A stretch of 63,970 nucleotides of DNA, the filler included, from Dirinaria sp. TL-2023a (Eukaryota): the NCBI GenBank assembly GCA_051941275.1. It is 42 parts of 42 records of this genome, joined end to end, with 100 filler letters (N's around TTAATTAATTAA, not from the genome) between each part and the next. Parts side by side here need not be neighbours in the genome. Positions count along the whole stretch, not along the records: positions 21,740 to 23,173 come from JAVEBF010002729.1; 41 more parts are not named here. One strand, given 5' to 3'. Below, one piece after another: positions 1 through 63,584 of the stretch (position 1 is the stretch's first letter; every line of letters begins with the position of its first letter). The translations under genes were made by a program, and so were the position numbers. A model generated the notes under the pieces. That model did no database searches, had not been told where the DNA came from, and worked only from the letters and a program-made list of their open reading frames with translations.

Positions 1-685
1 CGTGAGGTCATTTGGCTCTGCTGTATACCGTAGTAACAACAGGTTCGTAGCCGGCACCGCGTACAGATAGACCTCGTCGTCGATCAAATAAAATAGTTTA
101 TTTTTAATCTCATTTATATTGCGCATTCGAATAGATTAGAGTTAGAAATAATTCGTATCATGTTTTGATTTTGCGACAGCTAGTCAGCTCGTCAGTGAAC
201 ATCTTGCATGCTTTTGCTCAAGATATCTCAGACAGCTTCAGAAATAGATCAATCTACAAATATAATCATTCTCATTGCAGTATTTCTACATGAGCAAGAC
301 GTTTGTTATCGTCTATCATTGTAGAGTTGTGATTAAGATTTAGCTCTGATTCAGCGATTCTAAAAACTTTCAGTAAATAATCACAGTTCTGAAATCTCCT
401 TATCTCTTCTCGAATAGTCTCAGAATTAAGAAATTTTAGCGCTGAGTAACGAAGAGTCAGAAATCGTAAAAATTGTTGAAAAGAGACGAACAAGAAAGCG
501 TTCTCATTTTAAGATGCGTTAGAAGAACACATGACTGCGCAGAATAGAATCAGAAAATACATATGACTGCTACAGCAGTCTGAAGCCACGCATAAGACGC
601 TGCGAGAAGACAAACAAAAGAGAGTTGCATGTGCAGATAAGAGTTGATAATCGTTTGTTTTGATGAAGACTTATCTTTCAAGTAC

Positions 686-934
686 TGTCAGGACCGGTGT
701 AGAAGGTATGATTTATGCAGGTGCTATCAACTAAATACACAAAGCATGAAGAAGGAAAGAAATCTATAAACTAGAACCAGGCATTATATGGATGTGTGGG
801 CGTTGGACCCTGATCGGTCGGACCGATCATCACTTCGGATGCGCTAACCTCGATCAGATCAAAACTCAACATCACACACAAAAACCTTGTATAAAATGAC
901 TCGAGTAACAACAGTGAGAGTCATACTCGTAACA
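686..934 (-). repeat. 3' LTR of a Ty3/gypsy chromovirus (LTR family A)
   Basis: Reads TGTTAC...TGACA on the minus strand and is preceded by the polypurine tract GAGAGAGAGGGGTAG. Homologous copies at 43907-44155 and 50915-51163. Confidence 0.9.
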
Positions 935-1467
935 CTACCCCTCTCTCTCAAAAAGCGATGTTCTCATCGCGTGTATGTCTTAGTCATGACGTCGATGACG
1001 TCTCTGCGAAGATTTGTTATTGTTTACGTTTTTCGTCTTGTCGAGATATCGATGATGATAATTCTGAGTGATGTTCTTCGCATACATGAACTCGTCATTA
1101 TCGATATCGTATCATGTCAAATCTCTACTCTTTTTTTCTACTCATCGACAACGATATTGTAGTCTCTCATAATATCAGCACGAGCTGATTATTTCGATCA
1201 GCTCTCATTCATCGCTTTCGTTAATAACGATCTTGTCGAGAGATTCTTGTACTTGACTCGATAAAGAGTTTTCGAAATTCTTGCGCAACAGACTTGAGTG
1301 AAATATATTGTGTATTCTCATAATGTCAGAGAGTTGAAGCTCATAAAAGATTTCTATGACTTTGATTATCGAGAAAGATTCTAGCATCTTGTCTTCGATT
1401 TTTCTTGAAGATCTATCGATGACAATGTTCTTGCTCGATAGAAATATCATGTTCTCAACGTTATAAG
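935..1467 (-). mobile_element. Decayed gypsy integrase C-terminus plus chromodomain (family A)
   Basis: RSSRKIEDKMLESF..YELQLSDIMRIHNIFHSSLL matches the RPSRKL..GPF..YxLxLP..IHxVFHxSLL motif with P>S and G>E changes; in-frame stops follow. Confidence 0.85.
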
Positions 1468-3131: not shown

Positions 3132-4594
3132 GTGTCATTGATCACGAATAAAGTTGACATCTTGACTGAATATGTTAAAGTCGGCGTCAATGTTGAAGGA
3201 GTACAAGCAACAATCAAGACATGATTAGTGAATGTGATTATATACGATCTGCTTCTTGATCTTACGTGAATGCGAAGAGTTCACTGTAATTCACATTATG
3301 ATCTGAGAGTGATCACGATTAATGAAGATGACGACTTATCTCGACAAGTACAAGCACGACTAGCTCCTTTAGAAACAACCCTCTTCGTCGTTGAGTTCGA
3401 CGACGATGACGACGAGTCGACAGATCAGGCTTGTCAAGATTTAATTGATGAGCAGAAAAACATTCAGCTCTGATCATCGAAACAGAGAGAGATCAGAGCT
3501 ATGATAAATCTGCAAAACAACATCAGCATGCTTTGTTTGCTTTGTCAAAATCTATCGATATTAACACATTCTTATCAGCAGCAATTTTAACACATTCATC
3601 AGAGACTGACGAAGCTCAAATCTTTTCAATAGATTGTAAGTTCCATAGTGCACGAAAAGTACTCAAGTATGCTTTAGAAAAGGAAGAGAATTTCTTTATT
3701 GAACGACGATCAATGAAGAGAATGCTTTCTAAAATACTCTTATCAGAGATTCAAGCATGAGTACAAGAAAGCGAAATAATTATAGAGTCTAAAGCAGATA
3801 CATCTCGTCGTCGCGAACTCGCGCAACGATTGATATACACATGAAAGAACTGCTTCGCTCCTCGTATTAGAAATATTAAAGTAACAGATTTGATAGAATA
3901 TTCTATTGATTTGAAATCAAATGCGAGATCGATCATTAACTTCTTGCTCAAATACACTATGACAGAGAGAGAATTTGTCAATCGCATTTTTTCAGAGCTA
4001 AAAGAAGTCGACATAATAGCACGAAGAAGCAGCTCTTGAGAACATCGAATTAAGTTTTCATCAAAGAAGAAAGATTCGTCTCTGCTTCGAGTGATTCACA
4101 ATTTCATATCGATGAATAAATACATTATCAAGTCGATCTATCTCGTACATCATTTGAAAGAAGTAATCATCACTCTGATTGCTTCAGACTTTGATGTTTA
4201 CTTCATGACGAATGTCTTCAATTCTTACTGAGCAATATCAATGAAGTTCTCAGATCAAAACAAAATAGACTTTCTTACTTCAAATGATCAATGAGTCTAT
4301 CTGAGAATGAAACAGAGACTCAAGAGAGCATCGCACACGTATTCTCAATTTGATGATTTTGTTTTTGATTTCTTGTCAAGCAACATCGAGGACATTGAGA
4401 AGATGTCAACATTATTTGAGCGTTTCGAAAATCATGCATTTCAAATTTACATGAACGATCATTCTGTTTCAGCACGAGATTTTGAAGCAATGTTCATCTT
4501 TTTACACGAAAGTTATTTCTCAAAAGTTGCTTTTGAGTCGATTTATTTATCAGATGCTAAAACGCATGTTTTTTCAGATAGTTTAGAGATGTTG
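3132..4594 (+). mobile_element. Decayed Ty3/gypsy pol (protease end plus reverse transcriptase)
   Basis: YDLLLDLT* (from YDLLLGxxW), RVIHNF, YLRMKQRLKRASHTY (from MGQGLKGAPHTY), FQIYMND (from YMDD); many TGA stops. Confidence 0.85.
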
Positions 4595-7905: not shown

Positions 7906-8631
7906 ATCACAAAGAAATAAAAGACAATGAAGAAACGAATAAAATAGTCAACGAGACAAACAAATATTCGCTGCTCGATCAACTGACGTGTGAATCTGCT
8001 GTCAGAGCAGCGTTGATTCAAGAATAAACTCGCGCAGAATGACGAAGAAAATGAAAAAAAAGACATCAACGAAGTTCATTATCGCGCGTTGACGTTTACG
8101 ATAACTCAGAGTCATATGCGACTTCACGATGATCGAGCGAAGTCACACAGCGTTTTGTTTACACAGCTGAGATCGAGTAAGATAGACTTCAATCAATTTT
8201 TAAGCGAGCGACTCGTCTTCGAAATGATCACAGAGATCTGCGACTTCGAACAAAATCGCATGACAGTCAGACACGTGCTATTAACGTGTTCTACGTGAAG
8301 ACAGAAGAGACTAAAGATGCAACGAAGAACGAATAACATCACAGATGTGCGAAAACTACTCGATAGCGTCGCTGATGTCACAGCGACGATACGTATGATC
8401 TTATTCACTGATCTACTCAGTCAGTTTCAGACGACTGCTTTTTCTTCGGATTCTTAGACTCATAGAGTTCTCGCATGAAGAATTTTCTAGTATTATGAAT
8501 AGAGAAAACTGCACGTAACAAGAAAAGAGTCGACGCAGCGCTGACGCGCCGCCGATATAAGTATATAGATCTCGCATAGGCCCCTTGTGGGTGTTGAATC
8601 GAGTAAGAATTAAAAAAAAAAAAAAAAAAAA
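7906..8631 (+). mobile_element. 3' end of a decayed Tad1-like LINE (RNase H end, CCHC knuckle, 3' UTR, poly(A))
   Basis: HKEIKDNEETN (from HxGIxGNExAD) and TQLRSSKIDFNQFL..CDFEQNRMTVRHVLLTCST*; an A-tract ends near 8631. Confidence 0.85.
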
Positions 8632-9200: not shown

Positions 9201-9278
9201 TGTAAGATCGTATGCGTCGATTATCCGCCGACGCAGTACTTGTGTGAAAGACGTGGCAGTGTAATAGATTATATAGCT
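9201..9278 (+). repeat. Partial LTR-like repeat, family D
   Basis: Starts TGTAAG; matches 59431-59495, 40031-40120, 40121-40512 and 61089-61327. Confidence 0.85.
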
Positions 9279-20007: not shown

Positions 20008-21739
20008 ATTAAAATTTTCTTTTCCCCTCCATAACTATTAAACCTCTATCTAAATAACCGAAAAAAAAAAAGAAATCTATCCCCCTTCCCCCCCCTGCCT
20101 TCCNNNNNNNNNNNNNNNNNNNNNNNNNNNNNNNNNNNNNNNNNNNNTTAATTAATTAANNNNNNNNNNNNNNNNNNNNNNNNNNNNNNNNNNNNNNNNN
20201 NNNGTGCAGTGGTACACCCGACCCAAAAAATCTCAATGAAGCCGAAATCTGGTCCTACCCCTTATAGTACAGGGCATACCAGGAGGGATTTTCTAGGGAA
20301 GGCCCCCCTCAAAAGGGGCCCTCCTGAGCTTTTTGCCATTTTTAATTCATATTACCATTTCTAATTCATGATCCCACCGACTGGGTTGTGCTATTTCGCT
20401 CTGAAAAAACATCTCAAGTCGTGGATCAGGCCGGTTCGAACCTGCGTCTTTGCTCAATTTTGTGAGGTGCGTTGATTAGGGTTTAGCTCGAGGACTGCTC
20501 TCGTAGACCCTTTCAGGTAAGATACCTTAGGGGTGGTCAGGTCTTTCTTCTCTCCCGTGATATGTTTCAATGGCAGCCCCTATCTGTATACTGCTTTTGG
20601 TATTCACACACCGCGATATCTTCTTCGAGATCCAACAAGCATGACAAAACCTCATATCTAGCTGCCCAGACAAATTGGTCTATGCTTCACGCGCCTGCTA
20701 ACATACTCCTAGTTCCAAGCACATCAGGATAATCTGACAAAAGGACAATGGAGATACGACGATGAAGCACAATATCAACGAGAGATCATTGTCAGTTCCC
20801 CAAAACCCTCAAACCTGGTTTATCCGTTGCGAGGCCGCCCAAGAAGATGTCAAAATGGTGTACAATTAGCCGGAGACAGTAATGTGCAAACAGGAGCAAC
20901 TGCCATTTTCATGAAGTCTGCCTTATGCTGGTCACCGCTCATTGGGAGTCTAGTCCATGCTTCATGAGTCGCAGGTCTATCAGCAAAATTTCAGTCAATT
21001 GGGTCGTCTACGTTCTAACACCATCAACATCCCAGAGACAATCCCGATCACTAAGCCCGAGCATCTGGGAACATCACACTCAGGGGAGTGCCAAACGAAC
21101 CAAGACAACTCAAGTCACCGCCGGTGAGGTTTCGAAACTGGAGGTGCAGTGAACTCGCTGGTTTGCGGTGAGGGCGTTGAAGCGATATGAGCAGCTCGTG
21201 TGAGAGGAATCCAAAATATGTGACAAGATAAACAGGAATGGCCTGTGATAAGCTTAAAGTGATCGCAGAGGAAGAATTGATTCCAAGTGTGGCATTGTCA
21301 GACAGGAGCAATCAAACGCCGAACCTCTTGAGTTGAAGCGTTGTCACCATCCGTCCATGCCTCTGGAACAATCGCCTTCTTGTCAGAACCGAGAGCCCTT
21401 TCATCAGCGTTGTGAGGGGTAATCTCAGAGGTTCTTATACATGTGAGCGCAGCATCCTGAACCAATTACAAACATAGAGTATCTCACAGAGAATACCTCA
21501 GAGAGCCTTCCTCTGTATTTTTCAACCAGTCCTCACTCTCCTCCACATAGCCACATGCTCAATCCCCTCCTCCCACCACTCGCCCATGCCCTCATCTTTC
21601 ACGAAACCACAGCCTACCCAGAACCGCTCGATGTGTTTCNNNNNNNNNNNNNNNNNNNNNNNNNNNNNNNNNNNNNNNNNNNNTTAATTAATTAANNNNN
21701 NNNNNNNNNNNNNNNNNNNNNNNNNNNNNNNNNNNNNNN

Positions 21740-23173
21740 ATATAACTGTGAAAAATCGATATTTATTATCAAACATTGAAGAACTACAGAATCGCTTATC
21801 AAAAGCTCGATACTTTATCAAACTGAATTTAAAAGAAGTTTACAGTCTTATACGAATGAAAGAAAACGAGAAATGAAAAACAGTTTTTCGAACACGATAT
21901 AAATATTACGAATATTTGATCATGTCATTTGAACTCACAAACGCGTTTGCAACATGTCAAGAAATGATTAACGATATACTCAAAAAATATTTAAACGATT
22001 TTGTGATCGTTTATCTTGATAATATATTGATTTATTCCACGATTTTAAAACAACACGTGAAACATGTCAATCAAGTTTTGAAAAAACTAAACGAGAGAGA
22101 CATGAAGATCAAATTAAAGAAATGTGAATTTTATCGAAAAGAAATCGATTTCTTGAATTTCATCATCGAAAGAAACGAAATTCGCATTGATTTTCGCAAA
22201 CTGCAAGCAGTTCGAAACTGACAGACATCAACAACTGTGAAGAAAATACAATCTTTTCTCGATTTCACAAATTACAATCGAAAGTTCATCAGAGACTACT
22301 CTAAAAAGATAGTATCTTTAACTAAACTCACTGCGAAAAATACTCAATGAATCTGAGAAAAGAACGAACAAGAAACATTCGAACAATTGAAAAAGACATG
22401 TTTGAAAAAATCAACACTTAGAATGTTTGACGAAACGAAATCAATACGAATCGAAACTGATGCATCAGATTTGACTATAAAAGTTTGTCTGTGTCAGAAA
22501 AAACAGAGCAAATGACACTCGATAATATATTTCTCGAGAAAATTATCGTCAGCTGAACAGAACTACGACATACAGAACAAGAAATTGCTAGTTATCGTAA
22601 CATTCTTGAAAATCTAAAAAGTATATGCGAAAGAAGTATTTGAATTTGAGATACTAACGAATCATAAAAACTTGCTGCACTTTACGACAATAAAGTAGCT
22701 AAATCGAAGACAAATCAAATGATCGAAACTTTTTGAACAGTACAAATTTACTATACGATATACGTCAGAAAAAGACAATAACAGAGCGAACGCATTAAAT
22801 CGACGAAACGATTATATGAAAAATAAAACGAAGTTCAATCATAGCATATTAAAAGTGAATCAAAATGAATCACTATCGACAACCAAAACTCAGAAATTGA
22901 ATGCAACACTGCGCATATTTCGAGACGATTAAGAGCAATACTTTATATAGAGAAGAAAGTTGCAAATATCGACAAACAAGATTAAGAATTGTATTAAAAA
23001 ATATCACGATTAGTCACTGCAGAGACATTCGAGAATATTCAAAACATTGCGGCTTTTACGACAGAATTGTTAGTTTTTACATATGAGACAAGAGATCGAG
23101 ACATACGTTAGACGATGCTTTAGCTGTTAGAAGAATAAACATGCAACTCATGTTAAATACGAAGAATTGCAGT
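21740..23173 (+). mobile_element. Decayed Ty3/gypsy pol (RT, RNase H, start of integrase)
   Basis: E K*KTVFRTRY..MSFELTNAFATCQ (from MPFGLTNAPAT), VYLDNILIYS, IETDASD, EQNYDIQNKKLL, TNHKNL. Confidence 0.93.
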
Positions 23174-24805: not shown

Positions 24806-25510
24806 ACATGAGTTATAAATTGTCTGCTCAATTCGTCATTGAACTCTCGAATCGAGCGCGAACGAGTTAATTTCATCGAAATTATATTCAACGCTCTGCA
24901 TATTTCATTCGTTTTTCGATCATCGATAACGAAAATCACTGTTGACTTTATATCGACGAGACAGATATCATCGATTTGTTCAAAAAATGACGTCAATGTG
25001 CATGACACAATGAGTGCTGTTTAATGCGATGTGTTTTTATAAAAATTGTAAATAAAATTAAAAATTGAAATGATTATATCGTTTTTCGAAACGTCACTCT
25101 CGAGAGTTATGCGTTTTTCGCACTGTTATTCTCATGATCATGCTCATGATCATGATTATAAACATTTTTTAATAATCATTGATTTTCAGTGATATTCGAG
25201 TTCATATAAATCTCGTGAATTCGATTGTTTTTGTCGCGATCAAAACAATTTTTAATCAAATGACTCAATTTCTCACATTCGTAACAAGGAGATTGTTTAA
25301 ATAATTCGACATTCTGACGTTAATCGTCTGAACGATATGATTCTGATGACAATATTTTAAATGAGAGAGCTCGATAATCGATAAAACGACTAATTGCGAT
25401 AAAAAAATTAAAAATGAATGCAGTGCGGGATGTCGATCGTCGATCATATTCTGTTTTGTTATAAACGAGATTGCGTTGTTTAATATCAATCATTTGCAAA
25501 AAAAATCTTT
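24806..25510 (-). mobile_element. Decayed gypsy gag/aspartic protease region
   Basis: CLVDIKST (from DTGA)..KLTRSRSIREFNDE..ITH (from LxxPxPIRGFDG..ITH); CC/GG-depleted. Confidence 0.7.
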
Positions 25511-25974
25511 ATTTCGAATAAATCAGTAAACTTAACATCTCGAGTAACAAACACATTTTGCGATACTCTCAAAATCAGAAACATAAAACCATTAGCATAA
25601 AAAAATATAGCCAAGGGAGTAATTAGATCCTGTACTAACGAAAAAAGAAACAAAATTGAAAATTGGGAATAATATTTCTGAACTCGATCATATTATCAAT
25701 TATAACTATCTTTGAATTCGAAAAGTTACTGAGAATTATCACTGACGATGAGGCTCGCGATTCATTCTGATCGTCGCGATGAGATGAACGCGATCGACGC
25801 GACGTCGACAAATGAACGAGACATCATCGAGACGTCTTCGCAGAGAAAAATATCAAAATCGAGCGAAATATTGAATGAGATAAATAAGATTGTGAGACTT
25901 TATGAGTTTAAGAGAATCAATGTCAGCGAAATGATGTCGATGACTGAACTGTACAATCTGTTCGACATAATTCT

Positions 25975-26236
25975 GTTACGTTCTATCAGTCTAATATCTA
26001 GGGTTAGGTCCTAAAAAGGAAAGGTGCTAGGGTTTGATCTGTTGAAGAGGTCTGTTAAGAAACAACGAATGTTTTTGAGATGATATGACGATATCACAAC
26101 AAGATACAAGTTACTCTGAGCAGTAAATAGCTATTGCAAAAATGTTGAACACGATGCTAGAAGAGCGTTGTTATGCTAGTAAGAAGTTCCTTATGGAAAT
26201 CAAGTACTAGCTAGGTTATGTGGCAATGTGCAATAG
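25975..26236. repeat. Probable LTR fragment (unassigned family)
   Basis: TGTTAC start coincides with an abrupt compositional switch; no second copy in the window. Confidence 0.4.
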
Positions 26237-29393: not shown

Positions 29394-29944
29394 AATACAT
29401 TCTGTGGTCTCGATAGCACAACTGAAATCTATTCCCAGGACGGTCGATCCGTATAATCGTCCACTCCTCGATCACTCAGACTTCGTTTTCGTCGAGAGCG
29501 ACATCGAGAAGATCAAATTCTATGAGATAAAGCGAATAATACGTCATCGTGTTATCAAACGTCGTGATACGAAATATCTAGTCAGATGAAAAGACTATGA
29601 TTCAGAGTACGATGAATGAAGAAATGACTCAGAAATGAAGAACGCACAGAACCTGATTAAGAAGTACGAGCAACGAATAACATCGATGATCGACTCGCAG
29701 GATCGCAGCTCATCTAGATCTGTCAAGAAATCTACTCTCATCGTCATCAAATCTACTAATAGCACGAAGAAAATAGTGTCATTGACTGAGAGCTCGAAGT
29801 CTTCTAATACTAGCATAGTACTACGCAATTCTAGGATCGTTTTTCTCAATCAATTCATCACTCGTCGATCTATTAGATTGCTGAAGAACGATCGAGTCAC
29901 ATGACATCGAGGTCGACGTCTTTTTTCTTTTGCGGTGAGCAGGT
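29394..29944 (+). mobile_element. Decayed chromovirus integrase end plus chromodomain (family B)
   Basis: IHSVVSIAQLK..FYEIKRIIRHRVIKRRDTKYLVR*KDYDSEYDE* (from YLVRWKGYGPEYDEW). Confidence 0.88.
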
Positions 29945-30193
29945 TGTTATAGCATGACTTGATATTGCTATTTAGATGAATCAGAGTTTCTGGTTCAATA
30001 GCGCGGTCAGGGTTCATATGACTCTGGTGACTGCACTTTGAGGCGTCTTTCTAGTCACCTCTCTATTACTATATCACATCTAGACTAGCTAGCTTTCCTG
30101 GTATATAGACGGTCCTTCTGAACTTAGCAACTTAGACTTGAATACACTCATTCTCCCACTTTTTGGACGTTGCTATTTGGCATCACAACAACA
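29945..30193 (+). repeat. 3' LTR of the family B element (LTR G)
   Basis: TGTTAT...CAACA after a purine-rich tract; homologous to the solo LTR at 8813-9059. Confidence 0.85.
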
Positions 30194-30818
30194 CGGAATT
30201 TCATAGCCCCGATGTAATCGTAATAGCACCTGGTCGTCTTCTTTCAAAAACATGCTCTGGTGCTTAGAATTATAGATCCTAACGGTCTGCATCTGTGCGA
30301 AAGCTATGACGTTCGCGACGACTATTCGAGTGATCACGAAAATGAATTTCACGTCAGATGATTTCGTAAACTCTAGTAAGTCGATCGATTGCACAGAGAT
30401 AAATTCATAGACAGCCTCATTAGAAATATGCTCAGTCGTCGTAAATCGACTGTTATTGATGTCACGCTGAATACGAAGTAGAATTCTGATTCATTCGATA
30501 GAGTTCGACATGTCGGCAAGATAAAATCGAAAAGCAATCTCAACAGTTTGATTAATTCTTTCGCTCTGATCGTCCGTCTGAGAATGATAAGTCGTGATAT
30601 ACATGAGCTTGATGTCTAAACGATTGAAGATGGACTTTCACATATTCGATAAGAACTTTGAGTCTCGATCGAAGATAATGACCTTGAGAATACCTCAGTC
30701 TGCTACATTCAAGCGATCAAGTAAGATCACGTCTCATTGCTGTGCAGATCATTTAGTTTTGCCAGATATAAGGGTTACACGCTTTGTAAACTTGCACGTG
30801 ACTGACATAACAGAGTTC
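30194..30818 (-). mobile_element. Decayed gypsy integrase core, interrupted by the element above
   Basis: IFDRDSKFLSNM* (from SDRDPKFLS), TTYHSQTDDQSERINQTVE (from YHPQTDGQSER), VLLRLHRGYEIP. Confidence 0.88.
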
Positions 30819-40030: not shown

Positions 40031-40512
40031 ACAGTATGAGGTAGCCATATAATCTATTACACTGCCACGTCTTTCACACAAGTACTGCGTCGGCGGGTAA
40101 CCGGCGCATACGACCTTACAACAGATATATATTGATCAATGCAGGCTAGCGCCACTTGGTAGCCGGGGGTGCTCAGGGGCAATCCTTCGGGGTCTGAAGC
40201 ATGGCTAGCGCCGTCTAAGAGTCAGGGTCGGAAGGTTGAATCTCGAGACTGATTAGAAGTCAGTGCGCAGTTGACACTTATAAAGCATTGTGCCTACGAG
40301 CGCTCGTGACTCGTCAGCGCGGGGCTCGTCATGGTGAGGCAATGTTGACGCTCGCGTTTAAGTATAGAGGACCACTCACCCTTTCGGAGGGGGGTCCTTA
40401 GTGATTAGTTCTAGCAGGAACTACAGTATCAGGTAGCCGTATAACCTATTACACTGCCACGTCTTTCACATAAATACTGCGCCGGCGGGTAACCGGCGCA
40501 TACGACCTTACA
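40031..40512 (-). repeat. Two abutting family D LTR-like copies (40031-40120 and 40121-40512)
   Basis: The same terminus, ..GCATACGACCTTACA, occurs at 40120 and 40512. Confidence 0.85.
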
Positions 40513-41286
40513 ATTGCTAATTTATCATACAACACGAATTCTACTGCGTCTTTCGAAAACGTTTACATTCGTCAAATCATGTCAGCTGCTGCACACTAAA
40601 TTCTCGAGATGAGACTCATATATTTTATCGACTCTACTACTCTTTTTACGATTCTCGGCGTCAAAGAAGATCGATTTCTAAAAATCACATCACGAAATTT
40701 ATGCAATCGCTGCATCATTGTCAGAGTAGTCAGACTGAGAAACAAAAATCGATGTCGATTGAGACGAGATCGACATTCTGACACTTAATTCGTCGATTTC
40801 GACTCACGATCGAAGACTAATTTGACGTTTAGTCTCTCGAGTAATAGATTAAAATTCTTGTTAATGTGTGATTCGTATCGAAGCATCAGATCGACAGATA
40901 AACAGCTCGAGCGATCGCAATGTGAAATAAGTCATTTGTTAATAGATCATATGCCTGTTCGATAGTTCCTTTTCTCTAGATTCTCGTTGCAAGCTGAAAC
41001 TCTCAGTCAATGTTCGCGCAGAGTAAAGAATTATCAAACTCTAAAAATCATGCGAGTTGAGCTTGATTGAAGTGACTCAATCAGTTCAAGTCGATTTATA
41101 CAGAAAATGTTAGAAGATCGATCAGCAGCTTAGCTTTAAATTATGTTGACATACATCGACAGCGCAGCAAATTGAAATTTGCTCATAAACGTGTAACGTT
41201 TGTTTAATTGATTTTTGTCACGAGAAATACAGCTTCAATCGTGACTTTCAATCGTTGAAATCATCTTCATAGTCATATCGATTGCT
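40513..41286. mobile_element. Decayed repeat of undetermined class
   Basis: CC/GG-depleted, TC/GA-rich tract between LTRs; no confident motif. Confidence 0.5.
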
Positions 41287-43060: not shown

Positions 43061-44155
43061 GTGCGCGAGCGACGACGAGCTCTGCAGTCAGTCGCTCGTT
43101 TTCAACTCTCAATGAATCGGCATCTTGCGATATTTCGCGTTGTGCGCGAGCGACAGCGAGCTCTGCATTCAATCGTTCATTTTCGACTCTTAGTTGATGA
43201 TTTTTCTCATTCAGACGAGCATTCTCGTTCTTCGCACGATCGTGTCTGATCTGTAGTTTACTTCAATCGTTTCTTCATTTATTGACTTTCTCTCGAGACT
43301 GATTATGACGATCTTGAGTCTCAATGACAATATTATTGATCTCGTCGCGTTTCTTAACTAGCTCATTTTAATCGTCGACGCAATGAAGAGTAGTATCGCG
43401 TTTCAGACGACTCATTTTCATCGAGTTTAGCATCTCAACAGAGCGTTTGTTTACTCAGAATTGTAACTGTGAGATCGTATGTATATTCTTCGAGATGTTT
43501 GCTTCTTCTGACTCTGCGGAGACAGTATCTGACATCATCGATACGCGTCGTTTTTCTGTCTTCTTCAATAATCAAGTTATGCGTTGCTGAGACGTCATTG
43601 TCAACTCATCTGAGAACTTCGATAACAGTTGTCGCGTCGACGTCTCTTCTTTTTTCTGTTTCTGAGTCTGAGTATGTGCTTGCGTCTATTACGTCTGTGC
43701 TCTCTCGTTGGCGTCTCTAGTCATTGCTGATATCATCAATCAAATCGTACTTCTTTCTGATTACCTCGCGAAGCAACGAGAGCAAAGAATAAGATGTGTA
43801 AACAACAGTGTTTAGTTCAATTGTAGATGATGACACAGATGTTGTTGCGATTGTTTGAAACTCGTACAATTGCAAAACGAGATAAGGGGTTTGATGTTTT
43901 GTGTAATGTCAGGACCGATGCAGAATGTATGATCTATGCAGATGCTATCAACTAAATACACAAAGCATGAAGAAGAAAAGAAATCTATGAACTGAAATCA
44001 GGCATAATATGAATGTGTGAGCGTTGAACCCTAATCGATCGGACCGACCACCACTTCGGATGCGCTAACCCCGATCAGGTCAAAACTTAACATCACACAC
44101 AAAAACCTTGTAGAAAATGACCCGGGTAACAACAGTGAGAGTCAGACTCGTAACA
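43061..44155 (-). mobile_element. 5' LTR (43907-44155) plus decayed leader/gag of family A
   Basis: Same LTR as 686-934; the internal part is collinear with 50612-50914 and 61680-62480. Confidence 0.88.
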
Positions 44156-44474
44156 GTTACTAAATGTTTTAGAAAAGACAACAGAGACATTCAAGCTCTG
44201 AGTCAAATCGCATGAGATGATCAAAATAGCATGAACAGACGAGTGCACTCAGACAGTGAAAGAGATTAAACGTTTGCGTCGCGAATGTCGTATTTCGATA
44301 GACTAACAAACGTATATAAAAGTCTGCGATCGCAAAAAAAAGATATTGAGAAAACATAAACGAAACGAGTTTCGCACGATCATGCAGATCTCGAAAACGA
44401 CTAATAAAACTCTCTTCAGCAACGTCAAATGAGCTCGAAACGCGATAACAGACACGTTGACTCAAGCGATCATT
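44156..44474 (+). mobile_element. Decayed LINE ORF2 segment between endonuclease and RT
   Basis: A*TDECTQTVKEIKRLRRE..YIKVCDRKKKILRKHKRNEFR..VK*ARN (from WTxEC..RRxRR..KxxIRxAKR). Confidence 0.65.
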
Positions 44475-44574: not shown

Positions 44575-45229
44575 GGACCGGACAGCCAGGCCCAAGTTTC
44601 AACTACGAGCTTTTTAACTGCAACAACTTTAATATACGCTATTGGAGCTGGAATTACCGCGGCTGCTGGCACCAGACTTGCCCTCCAATTGTTTCTCGTT
44701 AAGAGATTTAAATTGTACTCATTCCAATTATAAGACCCAAAAGAGCCCTATATTGTTATTTCTTGTCACTACCTCCCCGTGTTGGGATTGGGTAATTTGC
44801 GCGCCTGCTGCCTTCCTTGGATGTGGTAGCCGTTTCTCAGGCTCCCTCTCCGGAATCGAACCCTAATTCCCCGTTACCCGTGAATACCATGGTAGGCCTC
44901 TATCCTACCATCAAGTTGATAGGGCAGATATTTGAATGAAGCATCGCCGACACAAGGTCATGCGATTCGAGAAGTTATTATGAATCACCAAGGAGCGGTA
45001 AACCGCGTTGGTTTTTATCTAATAAATACACCCCTTCCAGAAGTCGGGGCTTTAACGCATGTATTAGCTCTAGAATTACCACAGTTATCCATGTAGTAAA
45101 GCAACATCAAATAAACTATAACTGATTTAATGAGCCATTCGCAGTTTCACAGTATAGGTGTTTATACTTAGACATGCATGGCTTAATCTTTGAGACAAGC
45201 ATATGACTACTGGCAGGATCAACCAGGTA
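44575..45229 (-). rRNA. 18S rRNA: 18S rRNA gene, 5' ~655 nt (basidiomycete-like)
   Basis: Starts TACCTGGTTGATCCTGCCAGTAGTCATATGCTTGTCTC and includes GTGCCAGCAGCCGCGGTAATTCCAGCTCCAATAG. Confidence 0.99.
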
Positions 45230-50611: not shown

Positions 50612-51163
50612 AACTCATCTGAGAACTTCGATAGCAGTTGCCGCGTCGACGTCTCTTTTTTTTTTATTTTTGAGTCTGAGCATGTGTTTGCGTTTGTTGC
50701 GTCTGCGCTCTCTCGTTGACGTCTTTAATCATTGCTGATATCATCAATCAAATCGTATTTCTTTCTTATTATCTCGCGAAGCAACGAGAGCAAAAAGTAA
50801 AATGTGTAAACAACAGTGTTCAGTTCAATTGTAAATAATAACACAGATGTTGTTGCGATTGTTTGAAACTCGTACAATTGTAAAACGAGATAAGAGATTT
50901 GATGCTTTGTGTAATATCAGAACCGATGCAGAAAGTATGATCTATGCAGATATTATCAACTAAATACACAAAGCATGAAGAAGAAAAGAAATCTATGAAC
51001 TGAAACTAGACATAATATGAATGTGTGAGCGTTGGACCCTGATCGGCCGGACCGACCACCACTTCGGATACGCTAGCCCCGATCAGGTCAAAACTCAACA
51101 CCACATATAAAAAGCTTGTAGAAAATGACCCGGGTAACAACAGTGAGAACCAGGCTCGTAACA
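50612..51163 (-). mobile_element. 5' LTR (50915-51163) plus leader of family A
   Basis: Collinear with 43605-44155. Confidence 0.88.
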
Positions 51164-51872
51164 AATATGAAATTTCGTTCATCGATGTTTTAGACAAAAA
51201 ACTGAGTCAACAATACGTGAGCTCATTTAAAATAATAGAACGCATCGAACAATTTGTTTATCTATTGAATTTATTTAAAAATTGACGCATACACTCTGTG
51301 ATTATCATAACTCAACTGAAATCTTTTTTCAAATCGATCGATTTATACAATAGATCGCGTCTCGATTATTCAGATTTCGTTTTCGTCGAAAACGATATCG
51401 AGAACGTTAAATTTTATGAGATAAAGCGCATAATACGTTATCGTATTATCAAACGTCGCGATATCGAGTATTTAGTTCGATGAAAGAGATACGATTCGAA
51501 ATTTGATAATTGACGAAATGATTCGAAAATGAAGAATGCGCGGAATCTGATTAAAAAATATGAACGAAGAAATGTCTCGACGATCAATTAGTCGCAGCAC
51601 GTTAACGATGCGCAGAACATGATCGTTACAACGATTCTCGATAACGCGAAAAAAATAGCGTTCGTCGTTGAGCAACAGAACAACATGTCATTTATTTCAT
51701 GTGACACGATGCTGCGCGAATTTCGCGTAATTCTTTCAAATCGAAATATTAAGAGATCGCGAACTCTTATCGTCGGCAACTCTGAATCGTCGCGTCGATC
51801 GACGAGACTATTGTTGAAGAACGATCGAGCTACATGACACTTCGTTGAAGAACGATCGAACTATATGGCATC
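51164..51872 (+). mobile_element. Decayed family B integrase end plus chromodomain
   Basis: YEIS..KKLSQQYVSSFKIIERIE (from YVGPFKI)..FYEIKRII..EYLVR*KRYDSKF; homologous to 29394-29900. Confidence 0.88.
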
Positions 51873-52012
51873 TGTTAGGACCGGTGCAGAGCAAGTCAAT
51901 GCAGGTATAGTTAACTAAGATATTATCACTAAGGAAGGAAAGAAGAAGAAGAGAAGCTAGATACAATGGGGGTCCCAGATATATACGCGTGCGGGTGTCG
52001 CGTACCCCGATC
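51873..52012 (-). repeat. Partial LTR, family C
   Basis: Reverse complement of the end of 37509-37725. Confidence 0.85.
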
Positions 52013-58285: not shown

Positions 58286-59430
58286 TGCGAAACGTCGTTT
58301 TTCATTCATCGCTCTGTTTAATGCGTATTCGATAATAGACATCTTTAAGATCTAATTTTGTAAATGCTTTAGCTTCACTCAGACGATTCAGTGTCTTAGT
58401 TATAAGAGATAAGAAATGACGATTTTTAATTGTAATCGCGTTTAGCTCTCTATAATTTACACATAATCGTAGTTCTTTATCTTTTTTAGATACAAAAAGA
58501 ATCGAAGCTTCTGTTGACGAAACGAAACGACGAATTCAGCTCTTTCTTAGAGCGTTCTTTAGATAGCGTCGCAGCTCAGTCAGCTCGATCTGAGAAAGAT
58601 TGTATAAAAGCATAAAGAGTGATTCTCGACTCTTCATTAAATCAATAACATAACTTTTCTGATTTTGTTCAGACAGAATCTCGACTTTCTCGTTATCAAA
58701 TTGATTTCGAAACTTCAACAGCTTTTTGAGCATTGAAAGTTTCGATTTCGATTGACTTGTCGTCGTCGTTACATCGACGCAAATCAGTGTATACACTCGT
58801 TGCTATCTCGTTAGATCTATGACAAAATTGACGAGTTCAAAGATTTCGAATTTTTCGAAGACAATTTTGAATCGTCAATTTGCTGTCTCTAGATTTAACA
58901 AAATACTCTGACTTGCAAGCATGAGCATGCTCAAAATCAAATCGAGATCGACAAAATCAACTGTATAAAACAGAGTAATACATTCGCGACTCTGTTCTCA
59001 AGAGTCAACTAGTTAGTAGATGAGTTCATAAACGTCATAGCAATAGCGGCTCTCTTCGTCTAGAAATCTCGACAGCGACAAGACGACGACTATCTGCGAT
59101 AAGTTTCACTGAATAACAAACGCGTTGTTAATCAAATCTAGCTTTGCTTCGAAATTCAGAAGAGCTTTAATTTGACGCTTATCTCTCTGAAATATCGCTC
59201 ATTTCTTAGTTACGATGAGGTCGATCGTCTCAACTGATCTTTTTTGCTTCGTTTCTGAGACGCTTGCGAAGCGTCGAAGTTTTTTAAATTCACGACGTCG
59301 TCTACGACAATGTCTAAATTTGAGAGTTTTGAACACGACTTACTTCAGCGTTCAAACTCGTCACAATTATAACAAGCGTCTGACTCTTTATTCGCAGAGT
59401 CATCGACGTTGCGACGTTTTTGATTCGATC
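58286..59430 (-). mobile_element. Decayed gypsy gag end, protease and RT
   Basis: LYNLSQIELTELRRYL..SILFVSKKDKELRLCVNYRELN (from APILFVPKKDGxLRLCVDYRGLN)..DE*KTTFR. Confidence 0.92.
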
Positions 59431-59495
59431 TGTAAGGTCGTATGCGCCGGTTACCCGCCGGCGCAGTACTTGTGTGAAAGACGTGGCAGTGTAAT
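59431..59495 (+). repeat. Partial LTR-like repeat, family D (least mutated copy)
   Basis: TGTAAGGTCGTATGCGCCGG...; abuts the gypsy gag region. Confidence 0.85.
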
Positions 59496-59665
59496 NNNNN
59501 NNNNNNNNNNNNNNNNNNNNNNNNNNNNNNNNNNNNNNNTTAATTAATTAANNNNNNNNNNNNNNNNNNNNNNNNNNNNNNNNNNNNNNNNNNNNATATA
59601 TATATATATATATCTACATATATATATAAGGACTCGAGGCGAGCCCTTTTAAGGGGGGAGATAGT

Positions 59666-59946
59666 TGTGACGGCCTCGCTGACGTCACACGGAGCTTCGT
59701 CTGCTTCGCGCAGCGAGGCAGATTTTGTCGCACTGAGTCTTCTATGCGATTGGAGCGCAAGCAGGATCACGTCAACCTCGTCAGCGTCGTCTTAGCAAGG
59801 TCTGGAGCGAAGTTAAACCTTGAAAGCTATGATAGCAAGGGGAAGCAAGGGTATTTGAGAGAGGCAGATCGCTCACTTCTTTCTCGCTCCTCAGTTATTA
59901 GTCTTAGCAATAGAAGCAATCTGCTACTCTGCAACTTCGCATCACA
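59666..59946 (+). repeat. Probable 3' LTR of another family
   Basis: Polypurine tract AAGGGGGGAGATAG followed by TGTGA...TCACA; the right boundary is uncertain. Confidence 0.6.
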
Positions 59947-61088
59947 CAGTCAATCGTCGTCCGCGTTCACGCGGTGTGCTTCCTGCTTCGTCTGTAGCTT
60001 CGCTTCAGCTACGCAGCTCCACTCAAACGAGGCCCTTCATCTCACATTTTCGTAGCCATGATAAACAGAAGAAACGCGTCGATGCTGCGTCAGCTAGCGA
60101 TAAACAATCAGTACATAGTTGTTTATCTTTCTCTTCTCTTTTCTTTTTTTCTTTTTTTTTCACTCATATTAACATCTCTAAACTCGTAAGTATACTGCTT
60201 TTAACATGTGCTTGATCTGCTAATTTTTGATCGCTGAGATCACAGCACAATATCATCAGTAAGTACATCTCAGTCTGTGTAATCTGAGATGATTTTGTCG
60301 CTGACGCGCGCGCTTCGGCGGCGCACATAGTCAGCATCATCACAATCATCAAGCTTTTTTTTTTTTTGTGTTATCATGCCGTCAATGTGATCAATTTGTA
60401 AACGCTAATGCCGCAATGACGCATGATCGAAATGCTGATGAATATAGAGAAGAAAGATCTCTCTTGCACCGCGTGCTTGGAAAAGCGCGACTGCACTCGA
60501 GATCTTGAACCGTGCGATTGATGCAAGAACTTGCGCCACGGTCAACGCCGATGTGTCAATGTAAGTTTTTTCTCTTGCGCTGTCGTTGCAGCGACGCATT
60601 TATCGCGCTGACATCACGGCGGCGCATGTTTCAGTTGATTGAAATTTCACGCTAATAGCATATAGTTCATCGCCGAACATCGTCTCGATGTAAAAGTCTG
60701 TCTGCGTCGCTTCGCTCGCTGACAACGCCACTCTACTTTCGCTCCACGGACGAAAGTAGTCAGACGAGTGAAGCGAATTCGTGCACTGTCTCGTCAGTGA
60801 CGGATGTCTCGTGGCTATACTTCAGCCACGACGAATATCGCATATCTGCGTATTCGTCATCTCGTTGACGAGATAAACGCGCTAAAAACGCAGCTGAGCG
60901 AAACTGAGAATCAGCTCGCTGATGCTCAGAATCAACTGACTGCGCGAACAGTCGCGATGTGAGAGAATGAGAAGGAGAACGAGAAGCTNNNNNNNNNNNN
61001 NNNNNNNNNNNNNNNNNNNNNNNNNNNNNNNNTTAATTAATTAANNNNNNNNNNNNNNNNNNNNNNNNNNNNNNNNNNNNNNNNNNNN

Positions 61089-61327
61089 ACGCTTATAGAG
61101 CATTGTGCCTACGAGCGCTCGTGACCCGCCAGCGCGGGGCTCGTCATGATGGGACAATGTTGACGCTCGCGGTTAAGTATAGGGGACCACCCACCCTTTC
61201 GGAGGGGGGTCCTTAGTTATTAGTTCTAGCAGGAACTATAGTACCAGGTAGCCGTATAACCTATTACACTGCCACGTCTTTCACATAAGTACTGCGCCGG
61301 CGGGTAACCGACGCATACGACCTTACA
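61089..61327 (-). repeat. Partial LTR-like repeat, family D, inserted in family A gag
   Basis: Matches 40275-40512. Confidence 0.85.
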
Positions 61328-62480
61328 CTCATGATTAACTTTTTTTTCTTTATTGACTTCATCATACACGTTTTTCAGTATCTCAAGAATCATCAGATGA
61401 TTCTGAAAATAAAACTTGTTCGCAATGCGATATGCGTTAATGTGAGTAATCGTCTCATCGTCAACGCGTTGCATAATATAAATCGCTTTAACATCTTTCG
61501 AAACGAAGTGATTCTCATTGAAAATTAACTTGTCGACTATTTTATTGAATCAATTCTCGTATATCGAGTTTTTGTCATCAATAAACATAGACGAATCAGA
61601 CATTTTGACTGATCGTTGTACATGCGTCTAACTGTTTATTTGAGAGACATGAGATATTTCGCTCTGCGATACTTCGCGTTGTGCGCGAGCGACAGCGAGC
61701 TCTGCAGTCAATCGTTCGTTTTCAACTCTCAATGAATTGACATTTTGAGATACTTCGCGTTGAGTACGAGCGACGACGAGTTTCGCATTCAATCGTTCAT
61801 TTTCGATTTTTAATTGATTATTTTTCTCATTCAGACGAGCATTCTCGTTCTTCGCACGATCGTGTCTGATCTGTAGTTTACTTCAATCGTTTCTTCATTT
61901 ATTGACTTTCTTTCGAGACTGATTATAACGATCTTGAGTCTCAATTACAATATCATTGATCTCGTCGCGCTTTTTAATTAGCTCATTTCAATCGTCGACG
62001 CAATGAAAAGCAGTGTCGCGTTTTAGACGACTCATTTTCATCGAGTTTAGCATCTCAATAGAACGTTTGTTTACTCAGAATTGTAACTGTGAGATCGTAT
62101 ATATATTCTTCGAGATACTTGCTTCTTCTGATTCTGCGAGAGCAGTATCTAACATCATCGATACGCGTCGTTTTTCTGTCTTTTTCAATAATCAAGTCAT
62201 ACGTTGCTAAGACGTCATTGTCAACTCATCTGAGAACTTCGATAACAGTTGTCGCGTCGACGTCTCTTCTTTTTTCTACTTCTGAGTCTGAGCATGTGCT
62301 TGCGTCTGTTGCGTCTGTGCGCTTGCGTTGACGTCTTTCATCATTGCTGATATCATCAATCAAATCGTATTTCTTTCTTTTTATCTCGCGAAACAACGAG
62401 AGCAAAGAGTAAGATGTGTAAACAACAATGTTCAGTTCAATTGTAGATAATAACACAAATGTTGTTGCGATTGTTTAAAA
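61328..62480 (-). mobile_element. Decayed gag/leader of family A
   Basis: Collinear with 43061-43860; no CC or GG seen on a manual scan. Confidence 0.85.
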
Positions 62481-62986: not shown

Positions 62987-63239
62987 AGGGGGATCAAAAG
63001 TCAAACATCAAATACTTTCTTCGCGTCTCTCAACAAATCCTCTAGTCTCTCTTCTCACTCAAGCATCTTATTTTGATCTCTCTCTCATGATGAGTCGCTC
63101 GATGACTGTTATAGAGCTATTCTATTACAATTTCTCAATCAATAAGATATCAAGTTATTATACATTTAGTATTACAGAATCTTCGAGCAAGTCGACAATC
63201 GAGAAAACGAACTAGCTTCAATTTAAGCATGAGTCATCA

Positions 63240-63584
63240 TGTATCACAGCACAACGACTGAGAGTCGAGCAGCGTAGAGTCAAAAGAGAGATGTATCGAA
63301 AAAGAAAGATGACTTTAGTGAAGAAGACTCACGAGCTTGAGAAACTCTGCGATGTTGATATAGCTATCACAATCTGTCGAAATGATCGATGTTTCATCTA
63401 TCACTCAATGAATCGACAATCGTGATCGTCATCAATGAAACAGATTGTATGTTCTATATCACTTTTTCTATCGATATACTAACATTAAGAAGAAAATCTC
63501 GAGACATGAAAAACCTCGAAACTTTGATGTCAAGAACTCATCGACGATAAGATCAGACACGTCAGACACGTCAAAGCGTCGAAT
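63240..63584 (+). pseudogene. MADS-box (SRF-type) transcription-factor relic
   Basis: YRKRKMTLVKKTHELEKLCDVDIAITICRNDRCFIYHSMNRQS*SSSMKQI, then an intron GTATGT..ACTAAC..AG (63447-~63490); truncated by LTR E. Confidence 0.8.

Follow-up and report, generated by a model that had tools for sequence, protein, structure and literature searches.

Repeat-induced point mutation (RIP) serves as the chief defence against transposons in filamentous ascomycetes, where it shapes genome architecture, and it is recognised almost everywhere through the conversion of CpA to TpA. The RID/DIM-2 machinery is known to serve RIP in Pezizomycotina, and in Neurospora CpC is the least used context. Here we describe Ty3/Gypsy-rich repeat relics in an assembly of Dirinaria sp. 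TL-2023a (GCA_051941275.1) in which C>T change is directed mainly at cytosines followed by a second cytosine. They lie in a window of 63,970 bases, the whole stretch of DNA analysed, and the best characterised is a pol relic that occupies the whole of contig 15 (21740-23173, JAVEBF010002729.1). The window consists of 42 length-sorted contigs of 1390-1467 bp each, numbered c01-c42 along it and joined by spacers of the form N44-TTAATTAATTAA-N44 (for example 1468-1567 and 21640-21739). Since these are separate contigs, their order carries no meaning, and the genes of the window, which sit on other contigs, therefore have no physical linkage to the contig 15 relic.

The dinucleotide context of RIP varies among lineages: CpA is used in most fungi, CpG and CpA in Aspergillus nidulans, and CpT and CpA in Magnaporthe, Botrytis and Sclerotinia, and one study links this preference to sequence motifs of RID (PMC2621366; PMC4352252). 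In the accessible sections of these papers CpC is merely a category to be scored and not a signature that was found, and none of the variants described there is CpC-dominant. Microbotryum and other Pucciniomycotina exhibit TpCpG hypermutation, and the CpG decay of Tuber and rusts is ascribed to methylation (PMC2621366; PMC4352252). Closer to the window fungus in ecology and taxonomy, the lichen fungi Cladonia rangiformis, Xanthoria and Endocarpon carry large AT-rich repeat compartments ascribed to RIP, and homologues of both RID and DIM-2 are reported in Cladonia (PMC12542154). In the accessible parts of the lichen-genome studies (PMC12542154; PMC3897900; bioRxiv 10.1101/2025.11.25.690456) RIP is defined by GC content, by RIPper or by CpA indices, with no analysis of context and no mention of CpC. 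The words Lecanoromycetes and CpC are likewise absent from the main text of PMC7882544. No report of CpC-dominant RIP was found in the full-text literature searched, a coverage that leaves most subscription journals outside, and an earlier description is possible. Among the RIP signatures reported (CpA, CpT and CpG) a CpC preference would be new.

Contig 15 carries one frame, starting at 21742, of 477 codons with no frameshift and 13 stops (6 TGA, 2 TAA and 5 TAG). It matches the Pfam profiles RVT_1 (4.7e-19), RT_RNaseH (2.5e-21), RT_RNaseH_2 (9.6e-21) and Integrase_H2C2 (1.2e-11), and this association of a reverse transcriptase (RT), two RT-RNase H domains and an integrase H2C2 finger identifies it as a Ty3/Gypsy pol relic. 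The contig contains 2 CC and 1 GG where 33.4 and 33.1 are expected from its base composition (GC 0.305). The sum of 3 compares with a mean of 66.3 (sd 7.0, minimum 41) in 20,000 mononucleotide shuffles. The region 61328-62480 of contig 41 (1153 bp) contains neither dinucleotide, where 20,000 shuffles give a mean of 78.9 and a minimum of 51. The depletion of CC/GG is therefore real and far beyond chance. A preliminary description, made from the sequence alone, had arrived at the same counts by hand. It had also observed that both strands were hit, as the near absence of CC and of GG alike indicates, and that CA and CG were kept with TC and GA abundant, in agreement with the observed/expected ratios (o/e) of contig 15: CG 1.89, GA 1.53, TC 1.31, CA 1.07, CT 0.91 and TA 0.64.

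Ten contigs of the window are strongly depleted (c01, c03, c15, c17, c20, c29, c34, c39, c40 and c41; CC+GG o/e 0.05-0.42) and four partly (c06, c25, c27 and c42). The remaining 28, which carry genes and ribosomal DNA (rDNA), are normal (0.76-1.28), as had been claimed for the single-copy genes. Counted per kb over the two strands, CC drops from 60.3 in normal contigs to 10.7 in depleted ones, whereas CA (64.3 and 61.7), CG (53.7 and 58.7) and CT (64.6 and 58.7) hardly change. CG o/e reaches 1.63 when pooled over the ten depleted contigs and 1.6-2.0 in the relics of the window. AT content, which the preliminary description had named as an explanation that would refute its reading, does not account for the depletion. 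In the ten 400-bp windows of GC 0.40 or less from the 28 unaffected contigs, CC+GG o/e is 0.70-1.76 with a median of 1.14. Conversely, windows within 60251-61000 have a GC content of 0.47-0.50 and still a CC+GG o/e of 0.23-0.29; since contig 40 is depleted at GC 0.46-0.50, the depletion does not need AT-rich DNA.

The depletion has sharp limits. In 50-bp maps, 5-9 CC/GG per bin drop to 0 inside contigs 06, 27, 39, 41 and 42, with borders sharp to about 50 bp, and in contig 41 the border lies precisely at 61327/61328, where an element resembling a long terminal repeat (LTR) ends. Within the window every depleted stretch is a repeat or transposon relic. These borders bear on the simplest alternative, in which no mutator acted and the pattern reflects base composition, sequencing chemistry or a foreign organism whose genome avoids CC and GG. 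The window is a mixture of short contigs and the sample possibly includes several organisms. However, depleted and normal DNA occur on the same contigs, the depletion is independent of GC, and CA and CT, both of which are kept, would have gone as well under a bisulfite-like conversion. In addition, Pro, Gly and Trp codons have been lost in one direction and stops have accumulated, as detailed below, and the signature recurs in independent assemblies. Borders inside contigs and codon decay in one direction exclude artefact or foreign composition, and this alternative retains a negligible probability.

The direction of change in contig 15 was established with its 20 closest intact homologues (49-60% identity). 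The rule for a conserved position, agreement of 80% or more among 15 or more homologues, is satisfied by 279 positions, and at 80 of them the relic is different. Of these 80 differences, 75 are attainable through C>T or G>A only. They include P>S (9), G>E (9), D>N (8), A>V (7), E>K (5) and W>stop (5), among others. Conserved Gly, Pro and Trp have been lost entirely (0/16, 0/15 and 0/5 kept). Cys (7/7), Tyr (17/17), Lys (19/19), Ile (17/17) and Met (6/6) are fully kept, and His (7/11), Gln (8/9) and Arg (15/18) mostly so. The decay from Pro to Ser, Gly to Glu and Trp to stop had been recognised in the preliminary description, together with the degeneration of two motifs. One of them stands, the RT box reading MSFEL where MPFGL is expected; the other, YMND in place of YMDD, does not apply to contig 15, whose polymerase box reads YLDN.

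The context of change was tallied at sites where the codon fixes the ancestral dinucleotide. Mutations are present at 34 of 36 sites of the CpC type, compared with 5/38 for CpA, 5/17 for CpT and 0/22 for CpG (Arg CGN). The CpC class is composed of the first position of Pro (15/15), the second position of Gly (14/16) and the third position of Trp (5/5). The second C of the Pro codons has changed in only 6 of 15 cases, which makes the 5' C of CC the target. When 150 homologues at greater distance and the frames of contigs 15, 39, 20 and 01 are used, the tally is 41/46 for CpC, 1/23 for CpA, 0/12 for CpG and 5/19 for CpT; the frames of contigs 03 and 34 yielded no conserved position and do not contribute. 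The dominant CpC preference proposed at the outset is thereby upheld, the C>T changes being neither even over CpN nor led by CpA. Compared with the Pucciniomycotina and Tuber, the window shares repeat-associated C>T change outside the CpA paradigm. However, those systems, as far as the accessible sections describe them, deplete CpG, whereas the window relics keep or enrich it: no loss of CpG from repeats is observed, as both the CG ratio of contig 15 and its intact Arg CGN codons attest.

Copies of the other depleted repeats agree with this, their differences being mainly transitions. Contig 29 shares 91% identity with contig 41 (800 bp) and 90% with contig 34 (563 bp). Contigs 29 and 41 differ by 63 transitions and 9 transversions, and in this saturated pair the differences fall at CpT (32), CpA (21), CpC (4) and CpG (6). 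Contig 01 is less mutated, and the cytosines that it retains relative to contigs 29 and 34 are followed by C in 31 of 55 cases, by A in 16, by T in 8 and by G in none.

The signature is not confined to this assembly. A metagenome collection was scanned for the CpC-decayed RT motif M-S-F-[DE]-L-T-N-A, which gave at least 120 loci. Among the matches listed, to which all the figures on this collection refer, 62 combine a CC+GG o/e below 0.7 with a CG o/e above 1.25, at a GC content of about 0.17-0.38. They are exactly the loci on contigs with the prefixes JAABUJ, L, O, Q, S, U, W and Z (JAABU loci below). None of the 58 others qualifies, and the RT motif by itself therefore does not force the signature. 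The JAABU contigs span up to 846 kb, and the CG o/e of the loci is mostly 1.3-3.4 and reaches about 4.2. With the exception of two (L032 and L077), the JAABU loci of at least 3 kb form a single Gypsy family with 75-90% identity over up to 5 kb. Contig 15 aligns to this family at about 64-66% identity, and the two have their closest intact proteins in common. The two exceptions, from JAABUQ, represent a second Gypsy family, 81% identical to each other and about 56% to the main one, with CC/GG o/e of 0.03 and 0.07. Since they are distinct and nevertheless depleted, more than one JAABU family is affected. Loci L003 (JAABUS) and L058 (JAABUW) have 99.98% identity across 5,023 bp, from which it follows that the related assemblies have near-identical genomes or contigs in common.

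An alignment of 35 copies of the main family, from which L032, L077, the duplicate L058 and loci under 3 kb were omitted, was compared with an ancestor taken as the least mutated state of each column. The fraction of mutated cells is 0.675 for CpC, 0.404 for CpA, 0.395 for CpT and 0.263 for CpG, values whose contrast is diluted because such an ancestor scores subfamily differences as mutations, and whose cells are not independent events, the copies sharing ancestry. Reverse transitions (0.007-0.010) and transversions (0.008) are rare. The ranking of contexts holds in all 35 copies, including the least mutated one, L079 (0.39, 0.24, 0.20 and 0.13). A homologue-guided tally of 22 loci of at least 3 kb gives 934/1133 for CpC, 264/595 for CpA, 207/589 for CpT and 72/252 for CpG. 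Compared with the same JAABU column ancestor, contigs 15 and 39 gave noisy context fractions of no informative value, the families being too diverged, with an identity of 87% and 84% even when transitions are merged.

These alignments also bear on an enzyme unrelated to methyltransferases, that is, a cytidine deaminase editing retroelements, either AID/APOBEC-like on single-stranded complementary DNA (cDNA) or acting on double-stranded DNA. Dinucleotide-specific C>T editing is typical of cytidine deaminases, and Gypsy relics make up most of the affected sequences in which a domain can be recognised. APOBEC3G, which acts on minus-strand cDNA, would share with the window the C>T change at CC in retroelements. 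However, it deaminates the 3' C of CC and leaves a strand-asymmetric GG>AG pattern, whereas here the 5' C is changed, as the first and second positions of Pro show. C>T and G>A fractions on the top strand are near-equal in each of the 35 copies, unlike the outcome of minus-strand cDNA editing. The 5' base, which APOBEC-type and DddA-type enzymes recognise, is without effect at CpC (ACC 0.68, CCC 0.66, GCC 0.66 and TCC 0.68), and the specificity lies in the 3' neighbour. TC is enriched in contig 15 and not depleted. Finally, a MADS-box relic, which is not a retroelement gene, is also affected. As neither strand-asymmetric editing nor a 5'-neighbour context is observed, a deaminase appears very improbable. 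Ultraviolet damage was considered separately and rejected. It targets the 3' base of dipyrimidines, TC included, without confinement to repeats, and in the relics TC is enriched.

We consider it likely that the window contains Ty3/Gypsy-rich repeat relics of a Pezizomycotina fungus that were inactivated by a RIP-type C>T process preferring CpC and sparing CpG. In such a process dense C:G>T:A transitions accumulate in the two strands of duplicated double-stranded DNA, within the repeat only and in successive rounds. The preferred target here is a C with a C on its 3' side (CpC>TpC, or GpG>GpA on the opposite strand), CpT and CpA being much less affected and CpG essentially spared. By analogy with known RIP, the enzyme would be a RID-like (or DIM-2-like) cytosine methyltransferase machinery with an altered preference for the 3' base, sequence duplication would be the trigger, and the action would fall in the sexual phase, before meiosis. 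The resemblance to the RID-dependent RIP of Neurospora crassa and most Pezizomycotina includes dense change of C:G to T:A, with less than 1% at non-target sites of the JAABU copies compared with 26-68% at their C sites, on both strands (in contig 15 as in the 35 copies). Sharp borders, 3'-neighbour specificity, stop-filled relics, graded damage among copies and a host of the same subphylum are further points in common, and confinement to repeats with sparing of rDNA and genes, as far as the window shows it, would be another. The difference lies in the preferred 3' base, C, unlike that of the lineages reported: CpC is strongly preferred over CpA, and TA is not enriched. The Aspergillus- and Magnaporthe-type variants resemble the window in that preference varies by lineage, but here CpG is the least affected context.

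Part of this evidence could also be accommodated by slow decay without an active mutator, in which a methylase of the DIM-2 type, or of the Masc1/Masc2 type of methylation induced premeiotically (MIP), modifies repeats mainly at CpC and 5-methylcytosine (5mC) subsequently deaminates. Such decay likewise produces C>T alone, on both strands and confined to repeats, and with non-target change at about 0.8-1% of JAABU cells a strongly raised rate of 5mC deamination could perhaps suffice. PMC4352252, in its accessible part, ascribes the CpG-type signatures of some fungi to methylation followed by deamination. However, the saturation of CpC in contig 15 (about 94%), with CpG and CpA near 0-13%, demands a CpC-specific methylase, and none was found in the literature searched. 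The closest JAABU pair, L067/L076, differs at 90% identity by 259 transitions and only 5 transversions, which points to bursts and not to clock-like decay, and RIP is a known process of the subphylum. This excess of transitions, together with near-saturation at a single context, favours an active mutator, and methylation decay seems unlikely.

Several observations weigh against a RIP-type process. Lightly mutated Neurospora copies show strand-coherent runs of mutation, and runs of C>T or G>A of this kind are not seen among the private mutations of close JAABU pairs (z -0.5 to 2.1). In the pair L067/L076 C>T and G>A follow each other in random order along the sequence. The absence of runs also counts in favour of slow decay, although after many rounds of mutation it is not decisive. 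The preference is weaker in the JAABU family (CpC 0.82 and CpA 0.44 in the homologue-guided tally), whose copies are related, and its transversion background of 0.8% alone leaves room for slow deamination of 5mC. A short LTR-like repeat present in at least five places of the window is nearly unmutated, with normal CC/GG, which means either that the process has not acted since this family spread or that short pieces escape it; short duplications escape RIP in Neurospora. Finally, the relic contigs are tied to the gene contigs solely by their common assembly and by the ascomycete affinity of the Gypsy clade.

The last point concerns the host. Proteins of Loxospora, Varicellaria, Xylographa and numerous other Lecanoromycetes match the eIF3L fragment of the window at 83-85% identity, and one further entry matches it at 96%. 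The nearest named relatives of the contig 15 relic are from ascomycetes, Aureobasidium pullulans at 51%. These similarities indicate that the assembly is dominated by a Pezizomycotina fungus, which confirms the initial view that the organism is a fungus, and that the host is most likely nearest to the Lecanoromycetes and lichen-forming. That the relic contigs belong to the Lecanoromycete-like fungus of the gene contigs is our assumption, and the Pezizomycotina origin of the relics depends on the two sets of contigs representing one organism.

The standard indices fail to detect these relics, as the preliminary description had predicted. The thresholds in use, as given in the accessible part of PMC3897900, are TpA/ApT of at least 0.89 and (CpA+TpG)/(ApC+GpT) of at most 1.03. 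The ten strongly depleted contigs fail the first throughout (0.51-0.82). For the second they range from 0.91 to 1.50 and only three (c34, c39 and c41) reach 1.03 or less. Composite RIP indices are negative in all ten. In contrast, (TpC+GpA)/(CpC+GpG) is 4-73 in depleted contigs against 0.7-2.0 in normal ones. This shows that the negative values are a failure of the indices in a CpC context and no argument against the mechanism. The data thus support a repeat-directed, CpC-preferring C>T mutation that CpA indices overlook. The index (CpC+GpG)/(TpC+GpA), defined in RIPCAL, would catch it. Since index tools are negative on heavily mutated DNA, the extent of RIP in lichen fungi and in metagenome bins may be misjudged. 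The target choice of the RIP machinery would also be far more plastic than the reported range of CpA, CpT and CpG, and the window fungus would offer a natural variant for locating which residues of RID, DIM-2 or some other enzyme recognise the 3' base.

A wider, tentative proposal, to which we give less than even weight, is that an entire lineage of (lichen-forming) ascomycetes normally defends its genome by CpC-directed repeat mutation, through a RID/DIM-2 paralogue or through another enzyme that reads a 3' C and avoids CpG. The CpC form need not be universal in Lecanoromycetes, because RIP in Xanthoria and Cladonia was called with conventional tools. If the proposal were true, surveys based on CpA/TpA would have systematically under-called or mis-described RIP in that lineage, and the enzyme would be a natural specificity variant for mapping the target choice of RIP.

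The features of the window are listed in Table 1. Six of the depleted contigs (c03, c17, c29, c40, c41 and c42) were examined by six-frame Pfam searches; for the others (c01, c06, c20, c25, c27, c34 and c39) the screen was a phmmer comparison with Gypsy homologues alone. The preliminary description had reported both Gypsy and LINE (long interspersed nuclear element) relics among the affected sequences. The former are present as described, but no LINE domain was identified by six-frame Pfam in the six contigs so examined.

Table 1. Depleted relics, LTR-end-like repeats and the rRNA fragment of the window (positions along the whole stretch)
Feature	Contig	Position	Strand	Remarks
Ty3/Gypsy pol relic with RT, RNase H and the beginning of integrase	15	21740..23173	+	frame from 21742
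Relic with Gypsy integrase C-terminal region	01	1..1467	-	CC/GG o/e 0.32
Strongly depleted contig	03	3132..4594	.	CC 5, GG 5; o/e 0.11; weak Gypsy similarity
Depleted part of contig	06	7918..8517	.	normal DNA either side; 50-bp CC/GG map
Depleted contig	17	24806..26236	.	o/e 0.30; CG o/e 1.94; no domain found by six-frame Pfam
Gypsy integrase-core relic	20	29394..30818	-	o/e 0.40; encloses nested island keeping CC/GG
Depleted part of contig	27	40581..41280	.	normal DNA either side; 50-bp CC/GG map
Repeat relic	29	43061..44474	.	o/e 0.22; nested ~260-bp LTR-end-like island keeps some CC/GG
Repeat of the same family as contigs 29/41	34	50612..52012	.	o/e 0.42
Gypsy RT relic, depleted part of contig	39	58302..59401	-	phmmer vs Gypsy homologues
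Depleted contig	40	59596..60988	.	o/e 0.23-0.36; CG o/e 1.4-1.7; GC 0.46-0.50; no domain by Pfam
CC/GG-free stretch	41	61328..62480	.	no Pfam match; repeat family common to contigs 29, 34 and 01
Depleted part of contig	42	63081..63580	+	includes MADS-box relic
LTR-end-like repeat ending ...CTTACA	41	61089..61327	+	CC/GG normal; adjoins depleted stretch directly
Further ...CTTACA copy	27	40031-40121
Further ...CTTACA copy	27	40270-40513
Further ...CTTACA copy	06	9201-9278	-
Further ...CTTACA copy	39	59431-59495	-
LTR-end-like repeat (~260 bp) ending ...CTCGTAACA	01	~680-940		flanks differ per copy
LTR-end-like repeat (~260 bp) ending ...CTCGTAACA	29	43895-44155		flanks differ per copy
LTR-end-like repeat (~260 bp) ending ...CTCGTAACA	34	50910-51165		flanks differ per copy
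18S rRNA fragment	30	44631-45226	-	Rfam RF01960, 619 bits, model positions 4-605; CC/GG normal

The MADS-box relic (SRF-TF, PF00319) of contig 42 lies at about 63264-63377 (+) and scores 31.8 bits against a cut-off of 26 (9.9e-8). Its position inside a depleted stretch indicates that the process reaches beyond reverse-transcribed genes. Possibly the same process hit a host gene that had been duplicated or captured by a transposon.

Unaffected contigs carry, besides eIF3L, genes for a zinc alcohol dehydrogenase and DRE2, an open MULE transposase frame and the 18S rDNA fragment. The latter, although part of a repeated gene, is unmutated, as its normal CC/GG shows. The MULE frame, on contig 31 (46308-47495, +), is open over 396 codons with MULE transposase, FAR1 and SWIM-associated domains and a CC/GG o/e of 0.88. 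It is a gene of the DNA-transposon type without mutation.

The little-mutated repeat ending ...CTTACA occupies five places at or near contig ends, which makes it probably a young family, of high copy number, at which the assembly breaks. In contig 27 a distance of 392 bp separates two of its copies. The differences among its copies are of the CpC type in 9 cases, the CpA type in 4 and the CpT type in 1. The other 18 mostly reflect an arbitrary polarity where merely two copies overlap. A 22-mer of this LTR-like repeat has no match in the metagenome collection.

The ~260-bp islands ending ...CTCGTAACA retain some CC/GG amid depleted DNA. Their damage differs per copy and is least in contig 01. 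Such lesser damage in nested, younger LTR-like pieces than in the older DNA around them fits successive rounds of mutation. An LTR-end-like repeat ending ...CTCGTAACA, distinct from ...CTTACA, is also common to the starts of contigs 06 and 25.

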